Source: a virus
IMG/VR virus record: IMGVR_UViG_3300046323_000360
Location: 32,192-96,191 of that record
DNA length: 64,000 nt
Direction: 5' to 3' (one strand)
Part shown: positions 32,339 through 56,323 of the stretch, piece after piece
Layout of the letters: each line of letters starts with the position of its first letter
Position numbering within the stretch: the first letter of the stretch is position 1
Notes under the pieces: generated by a model
Databases searched by the model: none
What the model saw: the letters and a program-made list of their open reading frames with translations, nothing else
Told to the model about the DNA's origin: nothing
Made by a program: the position numbers and the translations under genes

Positions 32339-32422
32339 ACCTACACCATACACCAACTGGCTCTAAGTATTTATTTTTTCTGAGCAGGTCGGCAGGGCAA
32401 GTCGGCGAGCGCCAGACTCAAT

Positions 32423-32650
32423 GCTAGGCAGGGTTACGGCAGGGGCTAGGGTTTAGGGCTTCTAGGGGCTAGTCGGCAAAGGGCTAGGGGCTAGGCAGGG
32501 CTAGGCAGAGTCTTCTAGGGGCTAGGCAGGGCTAGGCGAGTAAATACCTAGTCTGAGCCGTGTAGGGCTTCTAGGGGCTTCTAGGGGCTTCTACGGCAAT
32601 AACCCTAGTGAATGGCTATTGGCAGGGCTAGGCAGGGCTAGGCAGGGTAA
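32423..32650 (+). repeat. degenerate G-rich tandem repeats (GGCAGGGCTA / CTTCTAGGGG units)
   Basis: Many consecutive ~10-bp units in a gene-free stretch. Confidence 0.8.
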
Positions 32651-32702
32651 AAGAAAACCGCCTAACCCCAAAGGGCTAGGCGGTCTCGAGAGCCGTGTAG
32701 GG

Positions 32703-32969
32703 CTAGCAGTCCAAGTCTTGAAGACTTGCCAACTTCATACCAATAAGGTCTAGGAAGTCCGCATACTTCGCAGTGTGTGGGGCTTGACGAACAGCGTCAG
32801 CACGGTCACGCAGAGCGTAGCGGATAGCCGAAACTTCATCATCGCTGAAGTGGTTCAGCAAGTCTGAAGTCGCATCGGCAACAACCATAACGGTTCCGAA
32901 GTCATTAGTAACAACTGGAATAGGCACGATAAATCCCCTTTCAGGATTATGAAGTCCGATTGACTTCAT
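32703..32969 (-). CDS. hypothetical cassette protein (leaderless)
   Basis: TTGCGA-N17-TATGAT-N6-ATG at 32969. Confidence 0.7.
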   Translation of the reverse strand: MKSIGLHNPERGFIVPIPVVTNDFGTVMVVADATSDLLNHFSDDEVSAIRYALRDRADAVRQAPHTAKYADFLDLIGMKLASLQDLDC

Positions 32970-32975
32970 ACCTAA

Positions 32976-33004
32976 ATCATACAGCAACTAATCAGCAATC
33001 GCAA
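32976..33004 (-). promoter_or_regulatory. sigma-A-type promoter, example of the cassette promoter class
   Basis: TTGCGA-17 nt-TATGAT with extended TG; the same layout (TTGCG(A/C), often TGTCG in the spacer, TAnnnT) recurs ~18-30 nt downstream of the 17-bp motif. Confidence 0.75.
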
Positions 33005-33115
33005 ATCGAGCGAATAGGGTCAGGGCCATTTGCCAGAAAAAATAAATACATCAACCGGCGAGCGCCGGCAAGCGCACAAACTTGAGCCGTGTGCCAGTCC
33101 ACGCCAGCGGAAACG

Positions 33116-33146
33116 CAAAAAGCCCCCTGCCTTTCGGCAAGGGGCT
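33116..33146 (-). terminator. intrinsic terminator, example of the cassette terminators
   Basis: AGCCCC-TGCC-TTTC-GGCA-AGGGGCT hairpin with an A-run on +, i.e. U-tract on -; similar hairpins follow nearly every cassette gene. Confidence 0.75.
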
Positions 33147-33160
33147 TCGGGGGTTTGTGT

Positions 33161-33511
33161 CTAGCGGAACAAGTTCACAATCACCGAAAAGCGAGTGCGC
33201 TTCTTGCTCTGGTCAATCAGCGGAACAATCGCCGACACAAGGTCAGGGTAGGTTGCGGTTAGGGCTTCAACGAAATCGGCTTCGTTGAATGTGGCACGCT
33301 CACGCCAGTCACGGCGAGCAACTTCAACATTGTGGTGAACCAGCAAATCGCTGTCACCAAAAGCCGTGTTGATGGCCTTGTCCAACTGCTTCTTTTCGGC
33401 TTCAAGGTCAGCAATCTGCTTCTTGACTTCGGCGAAACGCTTGACGGTTTCGACAATCTCACGGCTTGCCTTGCTTGCTACTGCGGTTGTTACTGCGGTC
33501 ATTGTGACCAC
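33161..33511 (-). CDS. coiled-coil hypothetical protein, paralog family A
   Basis: LLVHHNVEVARRDWRERATFN shared with 38410 and 45800 ORFs. Confidence 0.75.
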   Translation of the reverse strand: MVTMTAVTTAVASKASREIVETVKRFAEVKKQIADLEAEKKQLDKAINTAFGDSDLLVHHNVEVARRDWRERATFNEADFVEALTATYPDLVSAIVPLIDQSKKRTRFSVIVNLFR

Positions 33512-33722
33512 CCCTTTCGGGCTACTTATGTTTCACCCTTGCTTGATACTTCAAGCATACAGGGTTTCAACCAGAAGCGCAAATCGAAATGCCACGCAGG
33601 GGAAACTTCCAGAAAAAATAAATACATCAGCCCTGCCCGCCAACTCGCCTGCGAGAAGTGAGCCGTGTAGGGTAAAAGAAAACCCCCTAGCCTTTCGGCT
33701 AAGGGGTTACTGGGGGCTACAC

Positions 33723-33911
33723 CTATTCGGCGTAGTTGAAGCGCTTGTCCAGCAACTCTGGAGCAAACGCCTCAAGAATGTTGGCAATCTCGCTAATGCG
33801 AGTTAGGCGAGCGTCAGGGCGCTCGTCATCGCTAGAGCCGTTGAAGCCTTCGGCTTCGACAGCGTCCATTAGCGTCGAACACTCGACGGCTAGAGCCTTT
33901 AGGTTAGACAT
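33723..33911 (-). CDS. hypothetical cassette protein
   Basis: GAAAGGGG RBS, own promoter and terminator. Confidence 0.7.
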   Translation of the reverse strand: MSNLKALAVECSTLMDAVEAEGFNGSSDDERPDARLTRISEIANILEAFAPELLDKRFNYAE

Positions 33912-34126
33912 TTGAAACCCCTTTCGCCAGAACCTTTCTGGCTTGATAAATCAAGCATAGCACTATCGGCAAACTCTCGCAACACGCACGCACCGACGCG
34001 GATCGTTTTTCAGAAAAAATAAATACATCATCTTCCCCGAACTTTGAAGTTGTTCAGAAGTGAGCCGTGTTACGCAGAGCAAAGAAAAACCCCCAGCCTA
34101 ACGGCTAGGGGTCAAACTTTCTTGGG

Positions 34127-34306
34127 CTAGAACTCTACGCCCTCAGCGCCATAACGAACACGATAGGCGTGGATAGTCTCAGCGTTACGGCGAGCCTGAG
34201 CCTTGAACTCTTTAGCCTCTTGGAACTTATAGACGGCAATCAAGATACCAAAGGCTAGAACATTAGCCCCCACGATAAAGGCGATAACGGATACAAAAGT
34301 TAGCAT
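34127..34306 (-). CDS. small membrane protein (59 aa, below ORF-track cutoff)
   Basis: MLTFVSVIAFIVGANVLAFGILIAVYKF...; start overlaps previous stop. Confidence 0.6.
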   Translation of the reverse strand: MLTFVSVIAFIVGANVLAFGILIAVYKFQEAKEFKAQARRNAETIHAYRVRYGAEGVEF

Positions 34307-34503
34307 TACTTTTCACCCCCATTGCCATAGGCAAATAAGCCAACTAGAAAACCAACAAAACCTAATGACGCAAAGAACGCAGGAACAAATAGCAACTCGA
34401 AAGTCTGCACTGAGCCGTGTTTGATTGCGTCACCTAGCCAGATAAGTATTGCCCCAAAAAACATTACGGCTACGAAGTTCGCAACCTTTACCTTGAAGTT
34501 CAT
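34306..34503 (-). CDS. small two-helix membrane protein
   Basis: Likely start MNFKVKV after GAAAGGGAG RBS. Confidence 0.65.
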   Translation of the reverse strand: MNFKVKVANFVAVMFFGAILIWLGDAIKHGSVQTFELLFVPAFFASLGFVGFLVGLFAYGNGGEK

Positions 34504-34697
34504 TACTCCCTTTCCCTCAAGCAACTCTTGCTTGATACATCTAGCATACACCTTGCCTACGACAAAAGCAAACTCTGAAGTAAGCCGTGTATAGGGTTTT
34601 ACATAAAAAATAAATACACTCGGGCGACCTGCGATTTCGCCAAACTCGGCAAACAAAAAACCCGCCACTAGGGCGGGTTAGTTGTTGAGTTGTTGGG

Positions 34698-34904
34698 TTA
34701 GAAAAGTTTGCCTTTTCCAGTGAAGAAAGTGAATACGACTGCGCCAGCGATACCGAAAGTGAATCCATTATTCCACGCTTCGGCAATACCGAAACTAGCA
34801 CCAGCACCAAGTCCGATTAGCAATGCACAAAGAACTACATAAGCAAGAGCAATGGCAGGAACTAGAACAATACTTGCTACTGCTCGGCGGATTACATACT
34901 TCAT
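34698..34904 (-). CDS. small membrane protein
   Basis: Likely start MKYVIRR after AAAAGAGGG RBS. Confidence 0.65.
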   Translation of the reverse strand: MKYVIRRAVASIVLVPAIALAYVVLCALLIGLGAGASFGIAEAWNNGFTFGIAGAVVFTFFTGKGKLF

Positions 34905-35121
34905 TTTTTCCCTCTTTTCAGTTGGAACTTTTCCAACTAACTCAATGCTACACCAACTGAAAAACTTTCGCAACTTCAAGTGAGCCGTGTAGTAGTAGTT
35001 GGCGGAAAAAATAAATACACGAACAACAAAAGAAAAAACTGAAGTCACTCGCGGCGACTCCAGCCCAGACAAAAGAAAAGAGGGCTAATCAGTTTCCTGA
35101 CTAACCCTCTCGCCTCACGAA

Positions 35122-35352
35122 CTAGTGGCTCTTGCTGAACCCTAGGCAATCCTCGTTACCGCACTCGCACTGCTCGACTCCGTGTAACTGCTCTGAGCAA
35201 CCCTCGGCAGAACATACCTGCCCGAAGTCCAACTCTACGCACCCATACCAGCCTGCGTAACTTGCGTGGCTCTTTGCGTGAAAGTCTGAACAAAAGTATT
35301 CAGCCTCGACTACATCGCCCTTAGTGTCCTCGATAAGAACTGCGTTAGCCAT
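35122..35352 (-). CDS. Cys-rich hypothetical protein
   Basis: GAGGGGAG RBS; several CxxxxC/CxC motifs. Confidence 0.6.
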   Translation of the reverse strand: MANAVLIEDTKGDVVEAEYFCSDFHAKSHASYAGWYGCVELDFGQVCSAEGCSEQLHGVEQCECGNEDCLGFSKSH

Positions 35353-35566
35353 AATGACCAACTCCCCTCTATTTAGTTTCCAACTCAAGCCCCTCGGCTT
35401 GATACATCTAGCCTAACACGACCCTCTGACTTTTCGCTTGACTCTCGCCGTGTCCTAGTCCAACTTGCAGAAAAAATAAATACAGCCGCCGGCGACAACT
35501 TTGAAATAAAAATAAGAAAAAGAAAACCCCCGCCTTTCGACGGGGGTTCGCTGGTTTATTTGTTTG

Positions 35567-35836
35567 TTAGCGGTTTAGGTTTGAGAGGTTGAAGTGTTCA
35601 ACCATAGAGAGTTCATACTCTGCCCATTCTTTGGCTTCGGCTTCGGCTTGCTCGATAGTTGTCACGCCATACACCGTGCGAATGTCCACTACATCAAAGA
35701 AGATACCTGCGTAGTGCGCTGGCTTGAACCACTGAAAAGTTGCTGACCCGTTCCAAGTAATGAAAAACTCGTTCTCGCTGTCTGCGTAAATAATCGCCCC
35801 GTTGTCCTTGACGATGTCATAAATCTTATTGCTCAC
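35567..35836 (-). CDS. hypothetical cassette protein
   Basis: GAAAGGGG RBS, promoter and terminator. Confidence 0.7.
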   Translation of the reverse strand: MSNKIYDIVKDNGAIIYADSENEFFITWNGSATFQWFKPAHYAGIFFDVVDIRTVYGVTTIEQAEAEAKEWAEYELSMVEHFNLSNLNR

Positions 35837-36021
35837 TTGTTGCCCCTTTCAACCAGACTTTCTGGCTATGTCTATAGCCTACCCTACTCCCACGACATTT
35901 GCCACCCCACCCCGGCGCGGTTACCAGAAAAAATAAATACACTAACCACCATCAAGAAAAACCAAACAAGCAAAAAGAAACCCCGTGTTTCCACGGGGTA
36001 TCTCCGAATACTTTTTAGTTG

Positions 36022-36279
36022 TTAGAAAACCAACTCTGGCAACTCAAACACTTCACGCAACTTTGCTTCCAACTTGTTTAGGTTGCTCTCGGCTTTCTCG
36101 AATGAACCCCAAACATAGTTTGTAGTTAGACGCTGGATTTCTGCGTTGCGAGCGCACTCTGCCCAAACCATAGCGATAGTCATTTCACTCTGGTAATAGG
36201 CTTTCAAGTCGCCACCAACCAACTTGCGAACGATAGCAAACGCCGTGTCTTGGTTTTGCTTGATAGTCAAATCAGTCAT
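36022..36279 (-). CDS. hypothetical cassette protein
   Basis: GAAAGGG RBS, promoter and terminator. Confidence 0.7.
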   Translation of the reverse strand: MTDLTIKQNQDTAFAIVRKLVGGDLKAYYQSEMTIAMVWAECARNAEIQRLTTNYVWGSFEKAESNLNKLEAKLREVFELPELVF

Positions 36280-36472
36280 TTGTCTTTCCCTTTCTCAAGC
36301 CCCTTGCTTGATAGTTCAAGCATACACCACCCCTTCGACAAAACAAGTATTCTTATTGCGTTGTTGCGTCACCTGGCAGAAAAAATAAATACAGATAGAC
36401 ACAACAAAAAAGCAAAGATAAACGGGCAAAGAAAAAACCCCGTGTTATCCACGGGGCTTCAACTTCAAACTA

Positions 36473-36640
36473 TTAGCGAATAGTCAATACGCCCTTGCTA
36501 TCAAGTTCAACTTCCAAGTCAAAGTGCGTTGCGTTTTCAACGACCTTGATTTGGTTGCCAACTGATAAGCGACCTACCAAGATACCTGCTCCCAAAATAC
36601 CGAAACAAATAATGGCAAAAGCCAATCCTGCGTAATCCAT
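36473..36640 (-). CDS. small membrane-anchored protein (55 aa)
   Basis: MDYAGLAFAIICFGILGAGILVGRLSVGN...; start overlaps upstream stop. Confidence 0.6.
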   Translation of the reverse strand: MDYAGLAFAIICFGILGAGILVGRLSVGNQIKVVENATHFDLEVELDSKGVLTIR

Positions 36641-36807
36641 TATGCCCACTCCCTTAGTGCGTTAGTCTTGCGAGCCAATCGAGTATTGGCACGCTTTGTT
36701 GCTTTGTTGCCGTGAACGCCACTTGCGTTCGAGCGTGAACGCTCACGCAAGATTACGGCGAGCGCCTTGCTCTCTGCCTTGCGTCTTGCTTCGTTAGCCT
36801 TGTTCAT
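36640..36807 (-). CDS. small basic protein (55 aa)
   Basis: MNKANEARRK...RSRSNASGVHGNKATKRANTR; GAAAGGGG RBS. Confidence 0.6.
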   Translation of the reverse strand: MNKANEARRKAESKALAVILRERSRSNASGVHGNKATKRANTRLARKTNALREWA

Positions 36808-36977
36808 CTTGAACCCCTTTCATCTGGCTTATTCCAAGCCTACCACACCCCTACGACAAAGCAACTTATGACTGCACCGTGTGTAGGGTTATTGACAGAA
36901 AAAATAAATACACCAAACCCCTACAACTTTCGGGCAAAAGAAAACCCCCGCCGAAGCGGGGGCTTGCTTGCTGGGGG

Positions 36978-37145
36978 CTAGAGCCGAGGGTCGTGTTCGC
37001 TCATCTCTGACGGCTTTGGATAATAACCCTCGGTAACCTCCCAAGGGAAGTCTGGCGTTGGGTCGTAGCAGCTCTCGCAAACGCTATCGCTTTCGCTAAT
37101 CTCGGCTTTGCAGTATCGGCAAATCTCTGTTTCGTTGTTTGACAT
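36978..37145 (-). CDS. small Zn-ribbon acidic protein (55 aa)
   Basis: CRYC...CESC; GAAAGGTAGGG RBS. Confidence 0.55.
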   Translation of the reverse strand: MSNNETEICRYCKAEISESDSVCESCYDPTPDFPWEVTEGYYPKPSEMSEHDPRL

Positions 37146-37289
37146 TTCCCTACCTTTCTTTCTTGGTTACTACCAAGTTACACCATCTGACCAACAAAGT
37201 CAAATCGAAGTTCCGTGTTGGGGTTTATTGGCAGAAAAAATAAATACATACAGGGGTCGAGAAAAAAGGCGGGTTTCCCCGCCCTTTCC

Positions 37290-37652
37290 CTAGTTGCTTG
37301 CGTAAGCCAACACTGCTTGCTCTGTCGCCTTGAGAAACGCTTCAACATCAGACTCGCTGAGTGGAAGTTCATTGCCCTCGTCATCTGTCTTGTTCGATAC
37401 CAAAACAACATCGCCCAAGATAACATCTGTCTTGCCGTATGACGCTTCCCAAATAGCGGTGGCAATGTCGTTGAATGGGAGTCCAATCAACTTGCCCTCG
37501 TCGTGAATGTAAAGTGCCAAGCCCTTAAACGCTCCACGCAACGCAATGTGCTGGATAGTTCCGCCTACTGCTTCACGAATGTCCTTGTAAGCAATCTCTG
37601 GCATCTCTACCAAGTCCAAGTCCGTTGTGATACGAACACCTGCTACAGCCAT
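37290..37652 (-). CDS. DUF3846-like protein
   Basis: AVGGTIQ...YIHDEGKLIGLPFNDIAT...DVILGDVVL. Confidence 0.8.
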   Translation of the reverse strand: MAVAGVRITTDLDLVEMPEIAYKDIREAVGGTIQHIALRGAFKGLALYIHDEGKLIGLPFNDIATAIWEASYGKTDVILGDVVLVSNKTDDEGNELPLSESDVEAFLKATEQAVLAYASN

Positions 37653-37850
37653 TTCTGACCCCTCTCGTAGCCCTCCGCAACTTGCTTCCTGACTACATAA
37701 GTAGTCTACTCAATCCCTACGACTTTCGCTTGACTCGACTACCCGTGTGTGCGTTAGTTACATAAAAAATAAATACATAAGATAGCCCGTAACTTTCAGA
37801 CAAAAAGAAACGCCCTGCCTTTCGGCAGAGCGTCCTTTGGTGGTTGAGGT

Positions 37851-38216
37851 TTATTCGTCCTCGTCCTCGTCGTCGTCGTCGTTACAGACACCAGCGCAAC
37901 CAGCCTCACCGCAGTCCTCGCACTCGTCCTCGTCAAACTGTCCGATTAGAGTGGTGAAGCCGTCGTTAGGGTCAGCCAAGTTTGTAGCCACGGCACTCAC
38001 GAAACGAAGTGAGCAAGACTGGTCAAACCATTTCTTGACAGTTTCAAGCATTTCGATCGACGACATCTCACTAGCCGTGATGATTGGGTCATACTCATAC
38101 TTACGCATAAGTTCAACTTGCTCGTCATCCATAAGAACATAAATCTTGTGGCAAGTGTCCCAGGTGATTGCCTTAGCGTCCTCTAGGTATTCCTCTACCT
38201 TGTCGAAGTTAGCCAT
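37851..38216 (-). CDS. acidic hypothetical protein
   Basis: Likely start MANFDKV; WDTCHKIY...WFDQSCSLRFV; Asp/Glu tail. Confidence 0.7.
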   Translation of the reverse strand: MANFDKVEEYLEDAKAITWDTCHKIYVLMDDEQVELMRKYEYDPIITASEMSSIEMLETVKKWFDQSCSLRFVSAVATNLADPNDGFTTLIGQFDEDECEDCGEAGCAGVCNDDDDEDEDE

Positions 38217-38409
38217 TTCATTTCCCTTTCCTTGTATCAACTTTTGTTGATAACTCAATCTTACTCGTCTGCTATGACTTTCGCAAATCGTCGCCAACTG
38301 AGAGCCGTGTTTACAGAAAAAATAAATACACCTCCGGCACGCAACTTTTTTCATTTCCGGCAAACGCAAAAAACCCCGCCAACTTAGGCGGGGTATCTGC
38401 GACTAACTC

Positions 38410-38805: not shown

Positions 38806-39017
38806 TTGTTCCCTTTCTATAATCTCTGGCATTTCCTTCGACTACCTAAGTAGTCTATACCCTATTTACGACATTTGCCAAACTCTGAGCCGTGTCGAGG
38901 GTAATACGCAGAAAAAATAAATACACTAACCGGCTGCCACCTTCAGCAAACTTTTGAATAAGAAAAAACCGCCTTAGTCGAAACTAAGACGGATTATCTT
39001 TTTGCTTGTGAGTTTGG

Positions 39018-39296: not shown

Positions 39297-39480
39297 TTGT
39301 TTCCCTTTCTTATTGTCCCTTTCGGGCTTACCTAATAAGCCTAACATACTCTACGGCAAAGTCAAGTTCAGCCAGAGATAGTGGCAAAACTAGCAGAAAA
39401 AATAAATACACGCAGGTCGAAATAAAAAAATCAGCAAAAGAAAAACCCCTGCCAAAAGGCAGGGGCTTGTCCGTGTCTGA

Positions 39481-39669: not shown

Positions 39670-39841
39670 TTCTTTTCCCTTTCGTTGGCTTATGTAATAA
39701 GCATAGCATTGTTTTAGACTTTTTCAACTTTTATTATTTTCTTCTTTTTGATTAGCAGAAAAAATAAATACAAAAAAAAAAAAAAAAAAAAAAAAAGGCA
39801 AAAGAAAAACCTCGGGTTTCCCCGAGGCTTCCTTTCTGCCC

Positions 39842-40060: not shown

Positions 40061-40253
40061 GACCTACCCCTTTCACTTTTGTAACCCTGGTTGGTTACAT
40101 ACCAACTATACACCTTTCCAAAGACTTTTTCAACTTCTTTTATTTTTTCTTTGGCCACCATAAAAAATAAATACAGCTCAGCCGTGTTAGTTATTTCGGG
40201 CAAAAAGAAAACCGGCTGAACATTTCTGTTCAACCGGCTGACTTCGGATTAGG

Positions 40254-40457: not shown

Positions 40458-40711
40458 TTGTTTCCCCTTTTTGGTGGGCTTCCAAGTCGGTGGTTGGGAA
40501 GAACTCTCCATTGCCACTCTTATCTAGTCCTAGGCTGGAAGCGTTAGGTTTTTTACCTAACACTCTTATAGTAGCACTTCGCACAGACAAAATGTGATTA
40601 CTATTTTGAAGTTGCTCCCGCCGCCAGAAAAAATAAATACACGCAAACAAAAGCAAAAACAAAAAAAAAAACCAGCCAACCTTTCGGCTGACTGGCTCTT
40701 TATTTTTTCGG

Positions 40712-40942: not shown

Positions 40943-41085
40943 TTGTTTCCCCTTTCTAGGTATCTATAGACTACAGCACACCTACGACAAAAACTCTGAA
41001 CATTATTTAGAACTTACCACGCAGCCATAAAAAATAAATACACTTTACGATTCGAAGAAAGTGAAAACATTTGGGCAAAGAAAAA

Positions 41086-41183: not shown

Positions 41184-41192
41184 GTCTAAAAA

Positions 41193-41345: not shown

Positions 41346-41523
41346 TTCTTTCTCCCTTTCTCTGGCAACAAGATAACTCTACTACAACTGAGCCGTGTTC
41401 GCAACAACAACACGACGCGACTTCAAACTAACAGAAAAAATAAATACAGCTTCCGGATAACAAACAAATAAGCAAGGCAATAAAAAAGCCCCGCCTTTCG
41501 GCAGGGCTTTCTTGTTTTGTTGT

Positions 41524-41682: not shown

Positions 41683-41881
41683 TTGTCCCTCTTTCTAGTT
41701 GGTTTTCCAACTAATCCAATACTACACCTTTGATACGACATTTTCAACTCCCGTGTTTAGCCCGCGTGCTATTTCGCAGAAAAAATAAATACACCTATCT
41801 TCGGCAGCGCTACCACGCAACTTCTAAATAAGGTAAAAAGAAAACCTGCCCGAAGGCAGGTTTCCCGTGAGAGCCTAAGCC

Positions 41882-42322: not shown

Positions 42323-42579
42323 TTTTCCCTCCTCTGCCAGCCCCTTGCTGGACTATTCCAGCATACACCTATCTACGGACATTCGCAAAACGAAATACCA
42401 CCGGCTACGGCGAGCGCCAGAAAAAATAAATACGCTACTCGCCAATGGAAAATCTCGGGCAAAGAAAAAACTAGGCAGATAGCGAGGGGGGTGCTATCTG
42501 CCTAGTCCGTGTCCGAAGTGTTTGTCTGTTCAGTTAGAAAGGGGGGTTTTTACTGAATGAAATACACTCCGAAGTCTAT

Positions 42580-42801: not shown

Positions 42802-42990
42802 TTTGTTTCCCTTTCGTTTTGTTGATAGTTCTATCTTATAGCCTGTCTATGACATTTCGCAAATCTTGTTTCGAAGTTTGTGCCGTGTCCCAGAAAAAAT
42901 AAATACAGCCACTTCTCGCAGGGTAAAAGAAAATCCCCAATCCAAACTCTCGGCTTGGTTTATTGGGGATTATCTTTTTTGGCTAGGCTA

Positions 42991-43509: not shown

Positions 43510-43702
43510 TTGAATCACCTTTCTTTTGGACACTTCTAACTTACACCAGCCCAGCGACATTCGCAACTCTTTCGCCGGCGTGCGAGGGGTAGCAGAAAAA
43601 ATAAATACAACCCCTGAAAGTTTGGCGAGCCAGTTTAGCGACTTGGCTCTAGGTCGGGCTGACTAAAGACAGCGAGGTCGCCAATCCTCGCTTGCCTATT
43701 CT

Positions 43703-44086
43703 TTAGTCGTCTGTGTCTGACCTGACTAAAACATTGCGAGTAAAAGTTGCGCTACCCCACGACAAGTCGTGTCCAATAGCCTTAGCCTCAACCTCGACTG
43801 AAGTTCCTGAACGCTCTCCATTATCCCAGTCACGAACGCGCAGAGTTCCATAGAGAAAAATGCGGTCGCCTTTATTTACAGACGAAGCCGTGTTCACGGC
43901 GAGGTCGCGGAATGAGGTAATGGTATACCAGTTGGTTTCACCATCTACCCACTTGCTACTTGACCTATCGAACCTACGCTGACTTGAAGCCAAACGGAAT
44001 GAAGTGATAGGCAAGCCATCCTGCGTGACTAGGTGACGTGGGTTTGTTGCTACTAAACCAGTAATAGTGATGTTTTCGGTAATCAT
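43703..44086 (-). CDS. ssb: single-stranded DNA-binding protein (actinobacterial type, no acidic PF tail)
   Basis: ITITGLVATNP..ITSFRLASSQRRFD..WVDGETNWY..KGDRI..GTLRVRDW..VEVEAKAIGHDL. Confidence 0.9.
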   Translation of the reverse strand: MITENITITGLVATNPRHLVTQDGLPITSFRLASSQRRFDRSSSKWVDGETNWYTITSFRDLAVNTASSVNKGDRIFLYGTLRVRDWDNGERSGTSVEVEAKAIGHDLSWGSATFTRNVLVRSDTDD

Positions 44087-44252
44087 TTTTCCCTTTCTTG
44101 TTACCTCTACTCTACCCTATCTATACGACAAATCGCAACTATCCCGTGTTCACCACAGAAAAAATAAATACAGATCGACTGATGAGCCAACTTTCAAATA
44201 AGGCAAAAGAAAAACCGCCACCTTTCGGTGACGGCTTGTCTTGAAGTTTTGG

Positions 44253-44657: not shown

Positions 44658-44842
44658 CGTATTCCCTTTCGTTGTTTGACTTGCTTGCTATTAGTTTACC
44701 CTAATGCCACGACAAAAACCAAACACTAATGCGAAGTTGTAGCCCCCTTCAGAAAAAATAAATACAACGCGGCGAGCGCAACTTTCCAGACAAAGAAATA
44801 AGGGTTGAACCGAAGTCCAACCCTTACAAAGTTTCCGTGTTG

Positions 44843-45091: not shown

Positions 45092-45289
45092 TTCTTTCCT
45101 TTCTAGCCAGCCCCTCTGGCTATGTAAATAGCCTATACCCAACCAACGACATTTCGCTAGTGAGTTTTCCGTGTTAGTTCCGTGCAGCAGAAAAAATAAA
45201 TACACTAATGCGAAGTTGCGAAAAGTATAATCTTCCAGACAAAAAGAAAACCCCGAACCTAAGTTCGGGGCTTCCGTGTTTGGTGCTTG

Positions 45290-45607: not shown

Positions 45608-45799
45608 TAGATACCCTTTCTATTTCTATCTGTTGTTTTCCAGATACTCCAACTATACCCTAACCACTAGACTTTTTGCCCCGTGTTATTTGGAAGTTGC
45701 AGAAAAAATAAATACAAGCCGGGAGCAAAAAAAAATCGCCAAATACGGCGAGCGCGGAAACGGGCTGAACCGAAGTCCAGCCCGTTCGCGGTGTGCCGC

Positions 45800-46141: not shown

Positions 46142-46332
46142 CTCTGCCCCTCTCTATAAGTCTTACTTCTGTTTCTGACTTATGTAGTAAGTCTATACCC
46201 TAACTACGACTTTTGCGCAAATCGTTTGCTGAAAAATCCCGTGTCGTCAGAAAAAATAAATACACTCCCGGGTTGAAAAAATCGGGCAAGAAAAAACCCT
46301 CTCTTGCGAGAGGGCATTTCCCGTGTCGCTCG

Positions 46333-46539
46333 CTAGTTGCGAACATCAAGTCCACGGCGACGCAAGTCTTGAAGTATGTTTTTCAAGGCTCGATTGTCGC
46401 TTGGGGTGCTTGCTGAAAAGAAGAAGTCCCGTGCGTTAGGTGCTATCCACTTGTAGTGTCCACCCTTAGTGAGTTCGACTCTCCAGCCAGCCTTGATAGC
46501 GAGTTTTATCAAGTTGCCTAGTTCCTTTTTGTTAGCCAT
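46333..46539 (-). CDS. HicA-like protein
   Basis: AGWRVELTKGGHYKW...STPSDNRALKN...DLRR, HicA-like pattern common in actinophages. Confidence 0.7.
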   Translation of the reverse strand: MANKKELGNLIKLAIKAGWRVELTKGGHYKWIAPNARDFFFSASTPSDNRALKNILQDLRRRGLDVRN

Positions 46540-46773
46540 TTGTGTTTCCCCTTTCTTTGGCTATACTCATAGCCTACACCTTGCCAGCGACATTTGCACA
46601 AAAAACTTTTTGTTTGGCGTGTCAAGTTCAGAAAAAATAAATACACTTGCCCCCGTGACAAAAAAAAAAAGAGAGCCACAACCGAAAGGGGGTAAGGTTG
46701 TGACTCTCTAGGCGGAGTAATCTCACGCCTTTGTTGGCAGGGGAAAGGGGGGTTTACCCTGCCAAGTTTGTGC

Positions 46774-47109: not shown

Positions 47110-47274
47110 TTCAAATCCCTTTCATCTGGCTACTGCGCTTCACCTGATACTTCAACATTACCAGCATTTACACTCCAGCGCAACATCTGGCAAATCCCGT
47201 GTCTAGTGTCAGAAAAAATAAATACAAATCCCGTATAAGAAAAAACGCTGGCGACTTCTCACCAGCGTTATTCC

Positions 47275-47568: not shown

Positions 47569-47678
47569 ACTCAAACTCTATCCCAACCCTGTGACATTTT
47601 GCTAGAACCTTTTGGCAAGTGTCAGAAAAAATAAATACAACCTCGGCAAAAAAGAAAAAGTGCCTTTCGGCACTTTCA

Positions 47679-48267: not shown

Positions 48268-48269
48268 GC

Positions 48270-48401: not shown

Positions 48402-48405
48402 AGTT

Positions 48406-48690
48406 CTAACTTACCACTAAGTCGGCGTATTCGTCAAGTGCTTCTGGCGTGTCTGGAATGGTGTGTCCAGCCATACGAAATCCAGCCTCGATGATTAGGC
48501 TGTGTGGTTCAAAACCTAAGGCGTGTGCCACAATCTCAAGAAACTCTGACGAGATTTCCTTTTTGCCACGCTCAACTTCTGACAGATAGCCAAGAGCAAT
48601 AAAGCCTTTGTCTGACAAGTCGCGCAACACCATTCCACGACTTAGGCGTGTTTCGCGTAGCACTTCGCCAAGAGCGTCTTTGAATAGCAT
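48406..48690 (-). CDS. ClgR-like XRE-family transcription regulator
   Basis: LGEVLRETR...LRDLS...LGYLSEVERGKKEISSEFL closely follows the actinobacterial ClgR pattern. Confidence 0.82.
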   Translation of the reverse strand: MLFKDALGEVLRETRLSRGMVLRDLSDKGFIALGYLSEVERGKKEISSEFLEIVAHALGFEPHSLIIEAGFRMAGHTIPDTPEALDEYADLVVS

Positions 48691-48885
48691 TTAGTGTTCC
48701 TCTCCTTTTCGTGTTTCGTATCAAAACTCTACCAGCAACCTATGACATTCTCCAACTTCGTATTAGCGTGTTCAAAAGTTAGCAGAAAAAATAAATACAT
48801 TCGTGTTCCCCTGAAAATAGAGAAGTCGCCAACGAACCCGAGGGGGGGGGTTCGCTGACGACCTCGTGTGTCTGACCTCTGGGGG

Positions 48886-49275: not shown

Positions 49276-49388
49276 ACCTAAAACCTTAGCAGGTTGTTTC
49301 GACATTCGCAACTCCTCGCAGAAAAAAGTCAGAAAAAATAAATACACGCTGGGGGAAAAGAAAACCCAGACTTTCGTCTGGGCGTTTC

Positions 49389-49601: not shown

Positions 49602-49605
49602 TGCT

Positions 49606-49869: not shown

Positions 49870-49978
49870 TAGTGGTTCTCCTCCGCATCGCAACCTTGGT
49901 CAAAGCACTCTTCGCAATAGCCGTTTCCCAGCAAGCCGTCCGTAACCGAACAGGCTTGGCACTTACATTCTTTTTCCA

Positions 49979-50203: not shown

Positions 50204-50544
50204 TTGTGTCCTTTCTTTGGGGTCTTATCAAGTTAGCAGTTTATTGAGTTGTTGTCAAATCATTAGTCATAATCATCATAAAAAATAAATACATAGTCAT
50301 AAGGTGGAAAAGCCACAGGGAAGTTTTCTGGTTAGCGTTCGCGCTTTGGACAAGTCCAGTCGGCTACTGACATTCAGGTTATCCCTGTGGCTGTTCCGTG
50401 TTTAGCGACACTGCTGTCGGTTTTCCTAGCAAAATGGTCAGTTTCTAAGCATAGTAGCGGAGTCTAGAACACTCCTACACCGCAACTGATTTACAGCGTC
50501 CCTCGGGGCAATCCGTGCTAGGGAAGTCTTTATTTAGTTCTAGG

Positions 50545-51537
50545 TTACACGCTTGCCGTTTCTGTGTCAAGTGGCTTCTCCTCATTACAGAATACGCAGG
50601 AGAACCCGACCTGCTGGGTCGTGCCGTCCACTAGTTTGCTTAGAGGCACAAACTTGTGTTCGCAGACTTTGACTTTAGGCTCGCCGTCATTCAGCGTAGG
50701 GAACAAACGCTCGCCGTTTTCATTGGTAACAAAAATCGCCGTGTTGTCCTCTTGTAGTTCCATTTGCTCGTCAGGGTCATTGTCCTGTGCGAGTTCCCAA
50801 GCGTTCTCTGCCGTGTTGGTGCGAACCTTGTAGGTCTTGGTGACAACTACATAGAAGTCCTGCTCTGGGCGTGGGCAGTCCTCATACCAGTCGTCTTGGT
50901 CGTCAGAGTGTTCGCAGGGACACTCGCGGTCACGCGCAACATAGTCGGCGTGGCAATCAGGAATGTCCCACTCCTCCGTGGTAATCAGAGAACGCTCGCC
51001 CTCGTCGCCGTCAGACGAAGTAAACTTCACGCCCCAGCCCTGTTCCTCCTCGCACTCAAAGTCGAAGTCCAGAGTCGGGTGCTGTTCGACCATAGCCACG
51101 AAGACAGGTTCAGGAACAGACCACGCAGTTTCAAAAGTAATGTTGGCAGAGGCGTTGCCCTTGTCGTCCTTACTGATTTCGACATTCGGGCTACCAGCGT
51201 CCCACTTAGTTCCCCACTCACGAATGTTCCAGTCATACCAGCCATTGCCAGTAAACTTCAGGTCAAACGCAAACTGCTCCTCTTTAGTCCAGCCCTCGTA
51301 TTCATCTGGCTTCTTGCCGTGTGCGTCTGCGAAGTAGGCTTCCTTGTCCTCTGGCTCAATGAAGTTCCAGAATGAGAATGGGCTTTCGTTCATAGCGTCC
51401 TTGGTTTCATTCTCCTTGGTTTCGGAGTTCCAAGTGGTGTGCTTGGTTGGGTATTGCTTCCCAGCCTTTTCCACGAACGCAGTAATGTCTGCTTCTGTTC
51501 CAGACACTCCTACATAGTTGTAAACCCAGTTTGGCAT
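50545..51537 (-). CDS. DUF1281/Api92-like ferredoxin-fold protein
   Basis: MPNWVYN...WYDWNIREWGTKWDA...FETAWSVP. Confidence 0.75.
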   Translation of the reverse strand: MPNWVYNYVGVSGTEADITAFVEKAGKQYPTKHTTWNSETKENETKDAMNESPFSFWNFIEPEDKEAYFADAHGKKPDEYEGWTKEEQFAFDLKFTGNGWYDWNIREWGTKWDAGSPNVEISKDDKGNASANITFETAWSVPEPVFVAMVEQHPTLDFDFECEEEQGWGVKFTSSDGDEGERSLITTEEWDIPDCHADYVARDRECPCEHSDDQDDWYEDCPRPEQDFYVVVTKTYKVRTNTAENAWELAQDNDPDEQMELQEDNTAIFVTNENGERLFPTLNDGEPKVKVCEHKFVPLSKLVDGTTQQVGFSCVFCNEEKPLDTETASV

Positions 51538-51796
51538 TTGATTTCCTTTCGTTGCCTTAGTTCAGGATAGCATACCTTCAATCAACAAGCAACTACTAAT
51601 CAAAAGTTTTCTCTTTCTTTTTTTCAGAAAAAATAAATACTCCCCTCGAAAATACCGGGCGAAGCGAAACCCCCGACCAGTGAAAGGAGTTGGTCAGGGG
51701 TTTCTAATCTGGTGGTCAGTAGCACTTCATTGGGCTATGCGCGGAGAAAGGAACGGAACAACACCGCGCCCTGACCACCAGACTTCTTGGGGCTAG

Positions 51797-53659
51797 TTAG
51801 AAACCAGCCGTTGCTTTTTCCAGAGCCTCGCTCGCTGACTTTCCAATCAGGGTCGCAATGTTGCTTGGCTCTAGTCCGTCAAGCAGAACCGCGTGAGTTC
51901 CCTTGATAATCTCACGAGCGTTCCAACGCTCGCCGTGAACCTTGTCTGGGCTAATCCAGAGAACAGCCACGCCGTTCTTTTCGCAAGCCTTGACAGCCTG
52001 ACGCGCGTTCTCGGTTTCAACATCTGTATAACAGCCGTCCGATACGACAACCAACATACGCGCACCGCGTCCGTAGAGCAGGTCAAGTGTGCCGTCCAGA
52101 GCCGAGAAACCCTTGCCAAACTTTTCTGTGCCGTCCGTTGCCGAATAGACGCGAACCTCGTCCAACTTCTGTCCGACCTTTAGAGTGGCGAACACATCAT
52201 TGCCGTAATAGACCATAGCGGTCTTGGCTTGAATACGCTTGCCAGCCTCACCAAGAACCCACGCCGTAGTTGCCATAGGGTTCATAGCCGAACCCATAGA
52301 ACCGCTAATGTCCACCATTACGCCGATAGACAGAGTTGGCTCGTCCGTGTGCTTGCGAACCTTGTGTTCCCACGCAGGGTTCTTGCTCATAATGCCCTTG
52401 CTCTCTAATGCCTTGTTCTGAACAAGAGCGCGAGAACGCAGACGACCTGCTGGCAGTTCCGAGCGAATAATCGTCAAGTCGCGCTCGCGGTATTTTGCCT
52501 TGTCCAACATCTGCGCGACTTTGACAGAGGCAATGCGCTCTGCCGAAGTTGGCTTGCGAACCTCGACCAAGCGAGAGCCAGAGCGAGAGGAGGGCATAGT
52601 GGTCGTGCCTTTGCTATCGCCATTGCTCTGCTCAAAAACTTCTTGGGCAGTTGCCTTGTTAGAACGAATAATCTTTTGGGTCTTGGCGCGTTCTTTGGTT
52701 TCCTTATCCCAATCCTCTTGGGTCTGCTGGTCGCCCAGAGCGTTGCCAGTTGCGATAGCAGTTTCCATTGCGTCCTCTGCCAGAGCCTCAATGAGTTCGA
52801 CAATAAAGTTGCCCTCGCCCTCGCCCTCGCCCTCGCCAGAACCAGAGCCAGCGATAACAAAGCCACCCTCGCCCTCGCCAGTTTCCTCGCCCTGTTCCTC
52901 GGCGCGTTCCTTTAGCAGTTCGACCCACTTGGTAGCCAGCGCAATGCCAGCCTCTAGGTCGCCTGTCTTGTGGCAAACGAGAGCCTGAAAGTCAATCCAG
53001 ATTTCGCGCAACTTGGCAACTAGGTCTGGGCTAAGAACCTCAAGAACCTTTTGCTCAACAAGCAGAATGTCGCTTGTTTCAAGAACGCCAGCGTCCACGC
53101 GAGCCAAAGACAATCCTGCTAGGTGAGCAGTTGCGAAAGTCTTGGTCATTTTTTCAAGGTCGCCCTCGCTAAGGTCGCCCAGAGCAAGTTGTAGAGCAGA
53201 GGCGCGTAGGAACAACTTGTTCTCTGGCATACCCTTTGCCCCTAGACCCTCAATGCGACTTTCCTCCAAGAGCATAAAAGCGTCAATGACCTGCTTGTCT
53301 TGAGTCAGAGTTTCAAGATACTCAATGTTCCAAGTGGTGTGCTTGGCGTGTAGTGCCTCGTGATAGATAACCCCTGTTGCTTGTGGAAACTCAAACTGCT
53401 GGTCGCGCTCGCGGAGGTCGCCAACCATTGTTGGCGTAGTTGCCTTGCCAAAGGCAATAGGCAAGTTGATTTCGATTTCGGCGGTATCGCGGTAAAATGC
53501 GGCGAGTGCCTCTCCATTTACAGCGTCAATGCCAGCGTAAACAACTAGGTCAGTTCGACCTGCCCAATCGTTTGCGACCTGTCCAATCTGGGCGCAGGTG
53601 TGTAACCATTCGCGCGGAGTTTCGCTTTTGCGTTCCGCAATCCTTGAGTAGTGAGCCAT
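51797..53659 (-). CDS. vWA-domain protein with N-terminal HExxH domain (CobT/MoxR-partner type)
   Basis: YHEALH...LEESRIE; MIDAS VDISGSM and VVSDG. Confidence 0.85.
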   Translation of the reverse strand: MAHYSRIAERKSETPREWLHTCAQIGQVANDWAGRTDLVVYAGIDAVNGEALAAFYRDTAEIEINLPIAFGKATTPTMVGDLRERDQQFEFPQATGVIYHEALHAKHTTWNIEYLETLTQDKQVIDAFMLLEESRIEGLGAKGMPENKLFLRASALQLALGDLSEGDLEKMTKTFATAHLAGLSLARVDAGVLETSDILLVEQKVLEVLSPDLVAKLREIWIDFQALVCHKTGDLEAGIALATKWVELLKERAEEQGEETGEGEGGFVIAGSGSGEGEGEGEGNFIVELIEALAEDAMETAIATGNALGDQQTQEDWDKETKERAKTQKIIRSNKATAQEVFEQSNGDSKGTTTMPSSRSGSRLVEVRKPTSAERIASVKVAQMLDKAKYRERDLTIIRSELPAGRLRSRALVQNKALESKGIMSKNPAWEHKVRKHTDEPTLSIGVMVDISGSMGSAMNPMATTAWVLGEAGKRIQAKTAMVYYGNDVFATLKVGQKLDEVRVYSATDGTEKFGKGFSALDGTLDLLYGRGARMLVVVSDGCYTDVETENARQAVKACEKNGVAVLWISPDKVHGERWNAREIIKGTHAVLLDGLEPSNIATLIGKSASEALEKATAGF

Positions 53660-53791
53660 TTCCGTTCCTTTCGTTTATGGCTTGTATTTTGTTGTAGTCC
53701 TAGTAAAGCAGTTTTTGGAGAGCGTGTCAAGTTGATTTTGAAAAAAGTTTTTTGACACGCTCTCCCTGCTTTAGCGAAAGGACGAGAAACG

Positions 53792-54808
53792 CTAAATCTT
53801 TGCTGGCTTGACTTCCTCACCAAAGACGCGAGTGAAAACATCTGCCACTACTGGGCGGTCATTTTCAGGCGCACCTGCGAGCAAGTTAGCAACAGCCCAC
53901 TTAGTTCCAAAGGTCTTGGAAAGGTCGCGGAAAGCAAGTAGTTCGCGCATTTGTGGCGACCAAGAAACCTCACCCGAAACCTGCTTCTTAGACAAGTTCT
54001 GGCTGGCAGTAATCATTGGGGCAGATACACCCAACTTCTTAGCCAATCCCCAATCAGTAGTCATTTCGACCTGAATGGTGAAACGCGATAGCAGAGCCTC
54101 TGACAAGCGAACCCCAGGTGCGTTTGGGTTAGTTGCGCCAACAACATAAAAGCCCTCTTTGGCTTTGATAGTTCCGCGCTCTGGGTTCTGGGTAATGGTC
54201 AGTTCACCGCGTCCGTCCATAAGACCATAGACAGCAGACATAACCTTTGGGTCAATCAGACCAACCTCGTCAATCAAGAGAGGACGACCCTGCTCAACAG
54301 CGCGAACCAATGCGCCGTCAATCCACTCAAAGCCACCAGACGGAGTTTGAACATAGCCACCAATGAAGTCTGAAAGTTCGGTGTCGCCAGAGCCAATAAT
54401 GGTTTCTAGTTCGTCACCAAAAGCACCCTCAACGAGAGCAGTTTTTCCACAGCCCGGTGCGCCATAGAGCAAAACAAACTGGTGAGCCTCACGCGCTTTG
54501 CGTAGAACCTCAATGTCGGTGTGTTCGCCCCAACCACGCGAGTAGTAGTCGTGACCATTCGGGCGAGCATACTTCTCTGCGCCCTTGAGTGCGTCTGTTT
54601 CCACTTTTGCCTTGTCTGCTTGTTTGTGGGTCGTTGGCTCTCCACCCCTATTACGAAGTGTAGCACGACCAGCAGTAGGCATAAGGCTGTCAAGTCCAGC
54701 AGGAACAGCAGTAGGGTCAAGTTGCTGAATAGCAACTCCATAGACCAGAGCCGAAAGGTCTGGGTAGAGAGCGTCAATGTCGTTCTCGACAGGGGCAATA
54801 CTTGTCAT
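53792..54808 (-). CDS. MoxR/CbbQ-family AAA+ ATPase
   Basis: GAPGCGKT, LLIDEV, ATNP, LSEALLSRF. Confidence 0.9.
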   Translation of the reverse strand: MTSIAPVENDIDALYPDLSALVYGVAIQQLDPTAVPAGLDSLMPTAGRATLRNRGGEPTTHKQADKAKVETDALKGAEKYARPNGHDYYSRGWGEHTDIEVLRKAREAHQFVLLYGAPGCGKTALVEGAFGDELETIIGSGDTELSDFIGGYVQTPSGGFEWIDGALVRAVEQGRPLLIDEVGLIDPKVMSAVYGLMDGRGELTITQNPERGTIKAKEGFYVVGATNPNAPGVRLSEALLSRFTIQVEMTTDWGLAKKLGVSAPMITASQNLSKKQVSGEVSWSPQMRELLAFRDLSKTFGTKWAVANLLAGAPENDRPVVADVFTRVFGEEVKPAKI

Positions 54809-54850
54809 TTTGTTTTCGTCCTTAGTTAGTTGGTTTGTTGCTATAAGTGA

Positions 54851-55312
54851 TTATAGCACTTTTTCTGGAAAGTTCAAAGCGACACGCGCTTTCTGGATAC
54901 GGCGTAGCAGAGCAGACGGAGTTTTCCAATCCTTGACTTCTGCTAGGTCAATGGTGCTTACCTCGGCAACAATAGGTGTCTTGCGAAGTTCCATTTCGTA
55001 GGCAATCTGACGCTTGATAACGCTCTCAATCTGGGCAACCATTTCGACAGCCTTTTCCTGTGCTGTGGTCTGCGCGATAGGCGTTCCAAAAAGTTCCTTG
55101 TTGTTCACGCGAGAAAGCGAGATACGCCATTGCTTACGAGGCGACCAATCGCTCACGGTGCGAGAGTGAACAGCCATTGGAACATAGTTGGCACTCTCGT
55201 CAAAACCCTCTGGTGTTACGAGGATTTGGGTAACAACATTCTGACCTGCCTCTTTGGTGGTCTTTGGCACTAACTCAATGTAGATAGCCTTGCCAACAAT
55301 CTTGTCTGTCAT
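54851..55312 (-). CDS. hypothetical protein
   Basis: 153-aa ORF with AAGGA RBS, heads the MoxR operon. Confidence 0.7.
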   Translation of the reverse strand: MTDKIVGKAIYIELVPKTTKEAGQNVVTQILVTPEGFDESANYVPMAVHSRTVSDWSPRKQWRISLSRVNNKELFGTPIAQTTAQEKAVEMVAQIESVIKRQIAYEMELRKTPIVAEVSTIDLAEVKDWKTPSALLRRIQKARVALNFPEKVL

Positions 55313-55433
55313 TTCTTTTCGTCCTTAGTTCGATTTGTTTGTTTTGGTATTCAGTTGTAGTTATGACTTTACTCGCTTATTTTGAAGTTGTCAAGTCTTA
55401 TTACGAAGTTTTTTATAACGAAATGGTAACGCT

Positions 55434-55964
55434 CTAATAGTGTAGGTCTACGGGAATGAGATACTGCTTTGCTGGGTTGGTCTTTACACGCTCAACGAAA
55501 GAGCGTAGGTTCGCTGTCCAATCAGTTAGGTCATAGATAGCAGTATCTGGTGTCCACTCATCATCAAGTAGTTGTGCCAACTTCTTAGTTCCATACAAGT
55601 CCATGTCCCAAGTTTTCGTGTATGGGTCATAGGCGTATGTAGATAGGTCAATCGCTTTTGACTTGTAGTTGCGAATCTCATCTAGGCGTTGCTGGAGAAA
55701 CTTCTCAATAACAAGTTCGGCGAGCGCAGGCTCGTCTGCGTAGCAGAGGTGGTTAGCAATCTCTGCGTCTGGGTCTGGCTCGCCATTTTTGTTAGGAGTA
55801 AAGAACACAGCGTTAGACCAGCGACCTGCAAAGTCTTTCGTGTGTGCGCCAGAGGCTTCGTGCCAATCTGACCAACTAGGGCTTTCAGACAGTGCGCCCT
55901 CTACTGCGTCAAATGCTTCCTCTGGGCTATCTGCCTCAACGAGCATAATCTGACATACGTGCAT
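55434..55964 (-). CDS. conserved phage hypothetical protein
   Basis: MH..ILVEA...WSDW...GRW...YLIPVDLHY pattern. Confidence 0.7.
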   Translation of the reverse strand: MHVCQIMLVEADSPEEAFDAVEGALSESPSWSDWHEASGAHTKDFAGRWSNAVFFTPNKNGEPDPDAEIANHLCYADEPALAELVIEKFLQQRLDEIRNYKSKAIDLSTYAYDPYTKTWDMDLYGTKKLAQLLDDEWTPDTAIYDLTDWTANLRSFVERVKTNPAKQYLIPVDLHY

Positions 55965-56083
55965 TTGGGTCGTCCTTTCGTATTTGGATACAACAAGAAC
56001 ATTACCCTATTTAGTTGTTCAATGCAACTCGTGTTGCGGTGTGTCAGAAAAAATAAATACAGTATTGGCTCGTATTTATTTTT

Positions 56084-56323
56084 TCAGAGTTCATCAACCT
56101 CAGGTTCGATGACTGGAGCTGAGCATTCAATACATACTGAATACCCGTCGTCCTTATAGGTAAGTGTGATTACGTAAGGCTCGAATGTTCCATCTTCGAG
56201 TGCTCCTATAGCTTCCCAGCAATTGGCGCATTCGTAAGTGTCGATACCATCCGTTAATCCAGCAAGGTCCGCTAGTTCGATGTCGGACTCAGTCTCGATG
56301 AGGTGTACTTCATAACTCTTCAT
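56084..56323 (-). CDS. acidic Zn-ribbon protein
   Basis: CANC...CIEC. Confidence 0.6.
   Translation of the reverse strand: MKSYEVHLIETESDIELADLAGLTDGIDTYECANCWEAIGALEDGTFEPYVITLTYKDDGYSVCIECSAPVIEPEVDEL

Follow-up and report, generated by a model that had tools for sequence, protein, structure and literature searches.

An invariant upstream word in helical register with the cassette promoters of a hypervariable actinophage gene array

A word-headed cassette array upstream of the packaging genes

The sequence analysed here (the window) comprises the last 64 kb of a 96,191-bp IMG/VR viral contig, which CheckV estimates to be about 57% complete. The contig belongs to an uncultured lake actinophage (here G000) with a genome of about 150 kb, roughly 40% of which lies outside the contig. 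Between 32367 and 56087, the minus strand carries an array of 36 promoter–gene–terminator cassettes, each headed by the same word of 16–17 nucleotides (nt). On that strand the word reads (T)GTATTTATTTTTT(C/A)TG, usually with the preceding T, and it stands at a helically phased distance from the promoter that follows it. All array genes lie on the minus strand, and the array runs straight into the genes for the small and large terminase subunits, portal, major head and tape measure proteins, forming a hypervariable accessory region immediately upstream of the packaging genes.

Reading of the sequence combined with a repeat search gave the correct spelling of the word, GTATTTATTTTTTMTG, with six T's; an earlier note on this DNA had written five, one T short, and that form has no match even at two mismatches. 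A search of the window with GTATTTATTTTTTMTG returned 38 matches against 0.08 expected by chance, 36 of them on the minus strand (33034–56060) and two on the plus strand, and there are zero copies in the remaining 32 kb of the contig. The layout given in the earlier note, of about 36 oriented copies heading units of mostly 350–700 bp, was borne out: the copies are confined to the array, and their start-to-start spacing is mostly 336–702 nt. Equally correct was its placing of inverted copies at both ends. The downstream one occupies 32367–32382; the upstream one (56072–56087, with a CAG tail) lies 11 nt upstream of the first array copy, and neither has a promoter on its own strand. The minus-strand copies end in exact CTG in 30 cases, in ATG in five (34602–34617, 37761–37776, 40159–40174, 41026–41041 and 50277–50292) and in CCG in one (35003–35018, one mismatch). 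Conservation is full across all 16–17 positions, including the G/C flanks, and drops to zero directly beyond the edges, so that spacers and promoters diverge while the word stays invariant. No copy overlaps a gene called from a ribosome-binding site or a leaderless start, in keeping with the description of a near-invariant motif that is never coding.

Composition of the cassette module

The word is one part of a composite module of about 100 bp, which on the coding strand consists of an intrinsic terminator, the word, often an ACACGG box, and a sigma-A-type promoter, TTGnnAAATGTC...TAnnnT. The promoter is followed by a short palindrome or hairpin and a GAAAGGGG-type ribosome-binding site, or by a leaderless start, and then by a small gene. 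In a typical cassette, the word at 38909–38924 is accompanied by an ACACGG box, a −35 element at 38875–38880, a −10 element at 38852–38857 and the palindrome GACTAC-ttag-GTAGTC. This is the unit anatomy that had been proposed (terminator, word, promoter, and ribosome-binding site or leaderless ATG), and counts over the array agree with it. The terminators are G+C-rich hairpins with a T-run, of which the scanner finds 67 against 21 ± 4 in shuffled sequences; the strong ones lie nearly all on the minus strand, at about one per cassette. The gap between terminator and word varies from 12 to 98 nt, and a run of about 25 T's precedes the copy at 39756–39771 on the coding strand. A promoter block, tTTGcaAATGTCGTaG...GtGTAnnnT, was learned by expectation maximization with one occurrence per sequence; it is present after all word copies, with TAnnnT at the modelled −10 position in 36/36 cassettes.

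In a few units the ATG lies exactly 6 nt past the −10 element, which sets the transcription start 7 nt after it. One such leaderless-type unit is headed by the copy at 33034–33049, with its −35 element at 32999–33004 and its −10 element at 32976–32981. An E. coli-type promoter scanner showed no enrichment (15 versus 16.7), because the array promoters follow the actinobacterial TAnnnT pattern. No Rfam family was matched. Most units contain one small gene; the first (56045 to 51797) is a four-gene operon.

Further minus-strand copies of the word lie at 33610–33625, 34011–34026, 35468–35483, 36377–36392, 36896–36911, 37232–37247, 38314–38329, 39394–39409, 40625–40640, 41432–41447, 41777–41792, 42418–42433, 42891–42906, 43593–43608, 44750–44765, 45188–45203, 46248–46263 and 47210–47225.

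Helical phasing of word and promoter

The distance from the end of the word to the promoter block falls into discrete classes. In the window it is 26–29 nt in 23/36 cassettes and 16–19 nt in 8/36. Copies of the short class include those at 35925–35940 (19 nt), 44156–44171 (17 nt) and 45700–45715 (18 nt), those at 47623–47638 (18 nt) and 49330–49345 (17 nt), both with leaderless-type starts, and the ATG-tailed copy at 50277 (17 nt). Overall, 35/36 distances lie within 16–29 nt in a model learned from the window only, with one at 40 nt, and 36/36 do so in a six-genome model.

To quantify the periodicity we used 116 cassettes from six phages, namely G000 and five relatives. The distances group at 16–19, 24–29, 36–38, 44–50 and 57–59 nt, and their best-fitting period is 10.3 bp (Rayleigh R 0.60). 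Of the 63 distances left once the main peak is excluded, 73% deviate from the phase by no more than 2 nt (39% expected), a value reached in 0/20,000 permutations. No two of the 116 cassettes have similar spacers, so the cassettes are effectively independent. The gap between terminator and word served as a negative control: it varies widely and shows no period (R 0.12). It is thus the promoter, not the terminator, that sets the position of the word, on one face of the helix.

With the start site placed from the leaderless units, the word is centred at about −72.5 in the major class (spanning about −80 to −65) and at about −62 in the minor class (−70 to −55); in relatives, centres at about −82.5 and −92.5 also occur. 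Class I activation by CRP works at −61.5, −71.5, −82.5 and −92.5, and UP elements need to lie on the same helix face as polymerase (PMC4132738). The word centres thus match positions permitted for Class I activation. We conclude that the word is very probably a promoter-coupled, helically phased upstream element.

Word spelling in related phages

A terminase search revealed a large family of uncultured relatives (76–91% identical), three of which are complete at about 153 kb with terminal repeats. The five relatives compared (G001–G005) all carry the core GTATTYRTTTTTT, confined to one domain of 13–29 kb just upstream of the terminase genes. The spelling differs between lineages at the last three and two inner positions: TA..CTG in G000 and G001, TA..GTC in G004 and G005, CA..ATC in G002 and CG..CCT in G003. 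Within each genome, all copies share one spelling. Homologous cassette genes bear the spelling of the genome in which they reside in 24/24 comparisons, which indicates that the word goes with the genome and not with the gene.

High-scoring promoter blocks are nearly confined to the arrays, always with the word upstream. G006, a relative that is 80% complete and has 91% terminase identity, shares the promoter type but has zero copies of the word; its upstream regions bear other short words, such as GATCGATC and CGCGCTCGCGG. The word is thus a module separable from the promoter. Among named records the nearest is Actinomycetia phage DSL-LC01 (OQ999401), assembled from a metagenome; it has the same gene and array layout with another promoter signature, GATTCT-AAAGATGTTATAAT-AGAATC (also written GATTCT-AAAGATGTTATA(A/G)T-(A)GAATC), which occurs in 16 copies at 24–44 kb. 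This signature is an extended −10 element inside an inverted repeat, and OQ999401 annotates nothing regulatory there.

Other elements accompany the modules. In G003, a strong opposite-strand promoter block is preceded by two tandem reverse copies of the word (49887–49938), at distances of 35 and 70 nt, so that the word-plus-promoter module drives a leftward unit as well. The hexamer ACACGG occurs 58 times forward and 0 times in reverse in the array of G000 (32500–56100, minus strand; 2.4 per kb), whereas the 72 kb of contig outside the array have one forward and nine reverse occurrences. Roughly half of the array occurrences lie 4–14 nt after the word or 50–80 nt before it, and the others lie in coding or 3' parts. 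The arrays of G001, G002 and G003 also show an excess of the hexamer and those of G004 and G005 do not, which marks it as a separate, optional element.

Across the six phages, a perfect stem of at least 6 bp is present just past the −10 element in 44% of cassettes, against 3.6% in shuffled sequences. These stems begin within the −10 hexamer or at the predicted start site and lie about 10 to 45 nt downstream of the −10 element, for example at 36280–36325, 38806–38852 and 45092–45135 (minus strand). Among 51 of them there are 42 distinct arm sequences, and the folding energies are modest (−6 to −10 kcal/mol). A third segment often repeats the first arm, as in GCTTGA-acta-TCAAGC-aaggg-GCTTGA, so that the RNA would start with a 5'-terminal hairpin.

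Candidate reader proteins

We searched for a protein that could read the word. Neither a phage RNA polymerase nor a true sigma factor was found; T7-type and single-subunit polymerases were searched for in five genomes, and the controls for that family were also silent. A sigma region-4-like match was rejected because its open reading frame (ORF) sits in the small-terminase position. A gene with similarity to the helix-turn-helix (HTH) family HTH_17 (59944–60195) was discarded on three grounds: its recognition helix does not vary with the spelling, its grouping of G001 with G002 runs counter to the word classes, and G006, which lacks the word, has it too. The XRE-type HTH protein encoded in the array (48406–48690) was likewise set aside, since G001 lacks it despite having an identical word.

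WhiB-family proteins are encoded by every genome examined, which supports an actinobacterial host. One of them is fused to a C-terminal four-cysteine domain (...RFPLCPYC...C.DC.F.WQSRTSANAVDAYHAQ) and is encoded at about 15808–16254 of the contig, outside the window. It is present in G000, G001, G003, G004 and G005 and is conserved above the proteome average, its C-terminal domain highly so. A second, short WhiB occurs in the more complete genomes G001, G003, G004 and G005. We rejected the fusion protein as a word-specific reader, as it is not among the core proteins missing from G006 and so is apparently present there.

No orthologue common to G000, G001 and G002 groups by word class. In a phyletic test, five of the 54 proteins common to the four most complete word-bearing genomes are missing from G006. 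Among these is a protein of 154 aa in which two MerR/HTH_17 domains stand in tandem; its gene lies 0.8–8 kb upstream of the array in G001–G005. It is also found in G012; G010 has only a one-domain relative, and this shorter protein has no counterpart in the contig of G000. The tandem-HTH protein is the only candidate reader whose distribution matches, and we regard it as a candidate for experiment, not as a finding. By analogy, a two-headed HTH monomer is the kind of protein that could read an asymmetric site; PMC9283540 describes the Cluster A mycobacteriophage repressor as reading an asymmetric site as a monomer. The corresponding slot in G000 (60282–60605, minus strand) encodes an unrelated 107-aa protein without a family match, whose basic tail (AKPKPAAKPAAKK / AKPKPAAKPAAKKTPPTTKK) resembles histone-like DNA-binding tails.

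Gene content and flanking regions

Pfam matches within the array comprise SSB, XRE HTH, a HicA-like protein, DUF6011 and a conserved AAA ATPase/vWA pair at the array head. The first array copy of the word (56045–56060) heads the conserved four-gene operon (55964–51797), which encodes proteins of 176 and 153 aa, the AAA ATPase and the vWA protein. The copy at 51625–51640 heads a 330-aa gene (50545–51537), that at 48783–48798 the XRE-type HTH gene, that at 46629–46644 the HicA-like gene (46333–46539) and the short-class copy at 44156 the SSB cassette (43703–44086). This content, small ORFans together with SSB, XRE HTH and the HicA-like protein, suggests a possible early host-takeover domain, as the earlier note had proposed. 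Megablast of the array against cultured phages gave no matches. A 17-mer scan of 185,579 bacterial and archaeal genomes gave only single chance matches in AT-rich, non-actinobacterial taxa and provides no host lead.

Between the last cassette and the small terminase gene lie about 1.4 kb of mostly non-coding DNA (31240–32700), possibly a packaging or replication control region. It holds GGGCTAGG-type tandem repeats of 7 and 10 nt, including those at 32441–32647, which separate the inverted end copy from the last cassette, and an element, CTGCCCTCTCGCATCCCAAAAGC (31550–31572), that is conserved in five relatives. Directly upstream of the array, the region 56088–57620 (minus strand) has another regulatory style, with zero copies of the 16-mer. 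Its promoters, TTGACA-N17-TAACCT and TTGCAA-N17-TACAGT, are leaderless, with the ATG 6 nt past the −10 element, and it also carries AACTTCTAAATAAGAAGTT-type palindromes and GCAGC/GATC words. This region may represent an earlier temporal class.

Discussion

The word can be rationalized as a far-upstream promoter element that would act at fixed helical phase within the composite module. Its sharp edges, genome-specific spelling and separability, the 24/24 resident spellings and the array-bound promoters all point to a sequence-specific reader that co-evolved with its sites; a generic A/T tract would not be expected to show such features. We therefore lean towards a dedicated, sequence-specific regulator that reads the word and acts through polymerase. 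Such a DNA-binding protein would dock on the word, probably as a monomer or otherwise asymmetrically, would most likely be phage-encoded and lineage-specific, and would act on RNA polymerase along one helical face, so that all cassettes would be turned on, or later off, together as a single regulon. Binding of the word by a protein, contact with polymerase, and the sign and timing of the effect are what we infer from these sequence patterns. The dedicated binding site suggested in the earlier note thus gains indirect support from the phasing, the edges, the spellings and the wordless G006; no factor was identified, and a direct reading by the alpha subunit of polymerase is possible.

Several observations weigh against a dedicated regulator. 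The tandem-HTH protein is found neither in the 96 kb of this phage, by profile search or tblastn, nor in the syntenic slot, and its copies in G004 and G005 are only about 33% identical though these phages share a word. Many of the promoters already have good −35 and −10 elements, so an activator is not obviously needed. In G003, eight copies are reverse-oriented in the same slot, 35–38, 47 or 59 nt from the promoter and in roughly the same phase, which an asymmetric contact between protein and polymerase would not obviously tolerate. Finally, the word is identical in G000 and G001 though their orthologous proteins are only about 55% identical, and a slowly evolving reader, such as host polymerase, fits this at least as well as a phage protein does.

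The last two observations would be expected if the word were a displaced, strong UP-like element or a bent T-tract, read by the C-terminal domains of the host alpha subunits or acting through curvature, with no dedicated factor and with stronger promoters as its sole effect. A minor-groove or curvature effect would keep phase in either orientation, the identity of the word across diverged phages suggests a conserved reader, and the same-face rule for UP elements (PMC4132738) fits the observed phasing. In the TA spelling, moreover, the inner ATTTATTTTTT fits the upstream consensus AWWWWWTTTTT (PMC5658200). This explanation is the chief alternative, and we think it doubtful: all 16–17 positions are invariant, including the 5' GTA and 3' CTG, which exceeds what alpha C-terminal domains are known to need, and the CG of G003 interrupts the A/T run. 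The major position (−80 to −65) also lies two turns past the classical distal subsite (−57 to −47), the spellings shift in concert between lineages, and G006 has the promoter without the word.

A repressor or shut-off site would account for other features. Like the stoperators of Cluster A phages, the sites are asymmetric, numerous, intergenic, uniformly oriented to transcription and lineage-variable, and a phage protein could use them to silence the array or block read-through, be it later on or during a carrier state. The two-domain HTH protein of the relatives could read such a site as a monomer, as PMC9283540 describes for the Cluster A repressor. We consider this role improbable. The sites follow the terminator and precede the next start by 60–80 nt, outside the transcribed parts, where a roadblock would affect read-through only; their position follows the phase of the promoter, with no tie to the terminator. 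Neither an integrase nor an immunity cassette was seen, and the candidate protein was not found in this contig.

The arrays are extensively reshuffled. Most cassette genes have no homologues in the five relatives, and where comparison is possible the first few cassettes are collinear and the remainder scrambled: cassettes 9, 10, 12, 16, 21, 24, 26 and 29 of G000 correspond to 13, 30, 8, 24, 26, 17, 16 and 18 of G003. Cassettes therefore move as units. Nucleotide similarity (67–75%) covers leader and coding parts only, starting about 75–115 nt past the word and ending about 70–150 nt before the next one. The joints thus fall within the terminator-to-promoter gap, and at 67–75% identity they are not assignable to the word itself. 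Of the suggestion in the earlier note that the motif seeds shuffling, the scrambled order is borne out, and the breakpoints can be placed in that gap only. The repeated modules probably supply homology for cassette exchange as a side effect, and they also account for the continued expression of cassettes after an exchange.

That the word is mainly a recombination site, whether it marks where crossovers occur or is recognized by a site-specific enzyme for insertion, deletion and reordering of cassettes, with a secondary link to the promoter, is by comparison very unlikely. Hypervariable content and scrambled order would suit such a site, as would the resident spelling on every cassette, which might arise by gene conversion or site-specific insertion; PeSL cassettes of T4-type phages have been proposed to act in this way (PMC4122927), and inverted copies close both ends of this array and the downstream border in four of six genomes. 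A recombination site, however, needs no helical register with the −35 box, the relatives are too diverged for breakpoints to be assigned to the word, and no recombinase was seen beside the array. The idea that the word itself serves as promoter for an RNA polymerase that the phage encodes or injects, with the sigma-A-like boxes forming a conserved 5' leader, would account for palindromes that start inside the −10 hexamer and would be transcribed only from upstream starts, and is nevertheless scarcely credible given the lack of a single-subunit polymerase gene in five genomes (where the family controls were silent too), a sole sigma-like match in the small-terminase position, leaderless ATGs exactly 6 nt past TAnnnT, and a distance to the gene that varies by helical turns, which makes no sense for a start site.

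Returning to a dedicated regulator, a more specific and speculative form of it, which we hold to be unlikely as a whole, is a private regulatory 'dialect' for each lineage, in which a fast-evolving, two-HTH phage protein would read the word as a monomer and serve as a Class-I-type master switch of the array. An imported cassette would then need to be rewritten to the resident spelling for expression, co-infecting relatives would be insulated from each other, and the array would be a plug-in expression platform for new genes. Any dedicated reader would provide one handle on about 36 genes and a natural orthogonal set of promoters and regulators for actinobacterial genetics. Most of the unknown biology of large phages resides in arrays of small, fast-turnover genes, whose control in actinophages is little known. 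Here, sequence alone gives a precise rule: an invariant word, whole helical turns from a sigma-A promoter and spelled by lineage, is imposed on every gene that enters the array.

The array shares features with several known systems. Transcriptional activators such as MarA, SoxS and Rob at their marboxes, and p4 of phi29, bind, as a single molecule or unit, upstream sites that are asymmetric or bent and lie at defined turns from the promoter, and recruit polymerase through the alpha C-terminal domain. These systems have strict orientation rules, whereas G003 tolerates both orientations, and there is no sequence or protein homology. UP and Class I-type elements are poorly characterized in actinobacteria. 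Compared with CRP Class I sites and UP elements of E. coli (PMC4132738), the word has a similar geometry, and in the TA spelling its inner part fits the distal UP subsite consensus. UP elements are located at about −60 to −40; the word lies further upstream, as the earlier note had recognized, and is too invariant for a classical UP element. In contrast to Class I sites, it is asymmetric and mostly in one orientation, and its cognate activator is only a candidate in relatives.

As described in PMC6550527 and PMC9283540, Cluster A stoperators are likewise numerous, asymmetric, intergenic, uniformly oriented and lineage-specific sites in actinophages. They sit inside transcription units and stop elongation; each word, by contrast, comes after one unit's terminator and before the promoter of the next, to which it is phased. 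The present phage also shows no signs of lysogeny. No immunity repressor gene was found in the 96 kb of the contig, outside which about 40% of the genome lies, and the two-HTH gene of the relatives is absent from this contig.

The closest architectural parallel is the PeSL cassettes of T4-type phages (PMC2839356, PMC4122927), to which the array had already been likened. PeSLs are defined by a terminator stem-loop, an AT-rich region, a sigma-70-like promoter and a Shine–Dalgarno sequence in hyperplastic regions (PMC4122927), and the modules here follow the same order, from terminator stem-loop through AT-rich part, −35 and −10 elements and Shine–Dalgarno sequence to the start codon. Both lie between small ORFans in a hypervariable region, with gain, loss and reordering of whole units among relatives. 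The lineages are unrelated: the present phage is siphovirus-like, and the named phages closest to it are actinophages that encode a long tape measure protein. The likeness is one of design and not of membership; at the level of architecture the analogy is a good one. PeSLs are further characterized by indel or replacement junctions at the element in close pairs and by mini-circle excision; the joints seen here can be placed in the terminator-to-promoter gap only. The AT-rich part differs in being a sharply bounded, invariant 16–17-mer, placed at whole helical turns from the promoter and spelled by lineage. A phased invariant word is not among the described features of PeSLs, and the array-wide phasing of word and promoter is new here.

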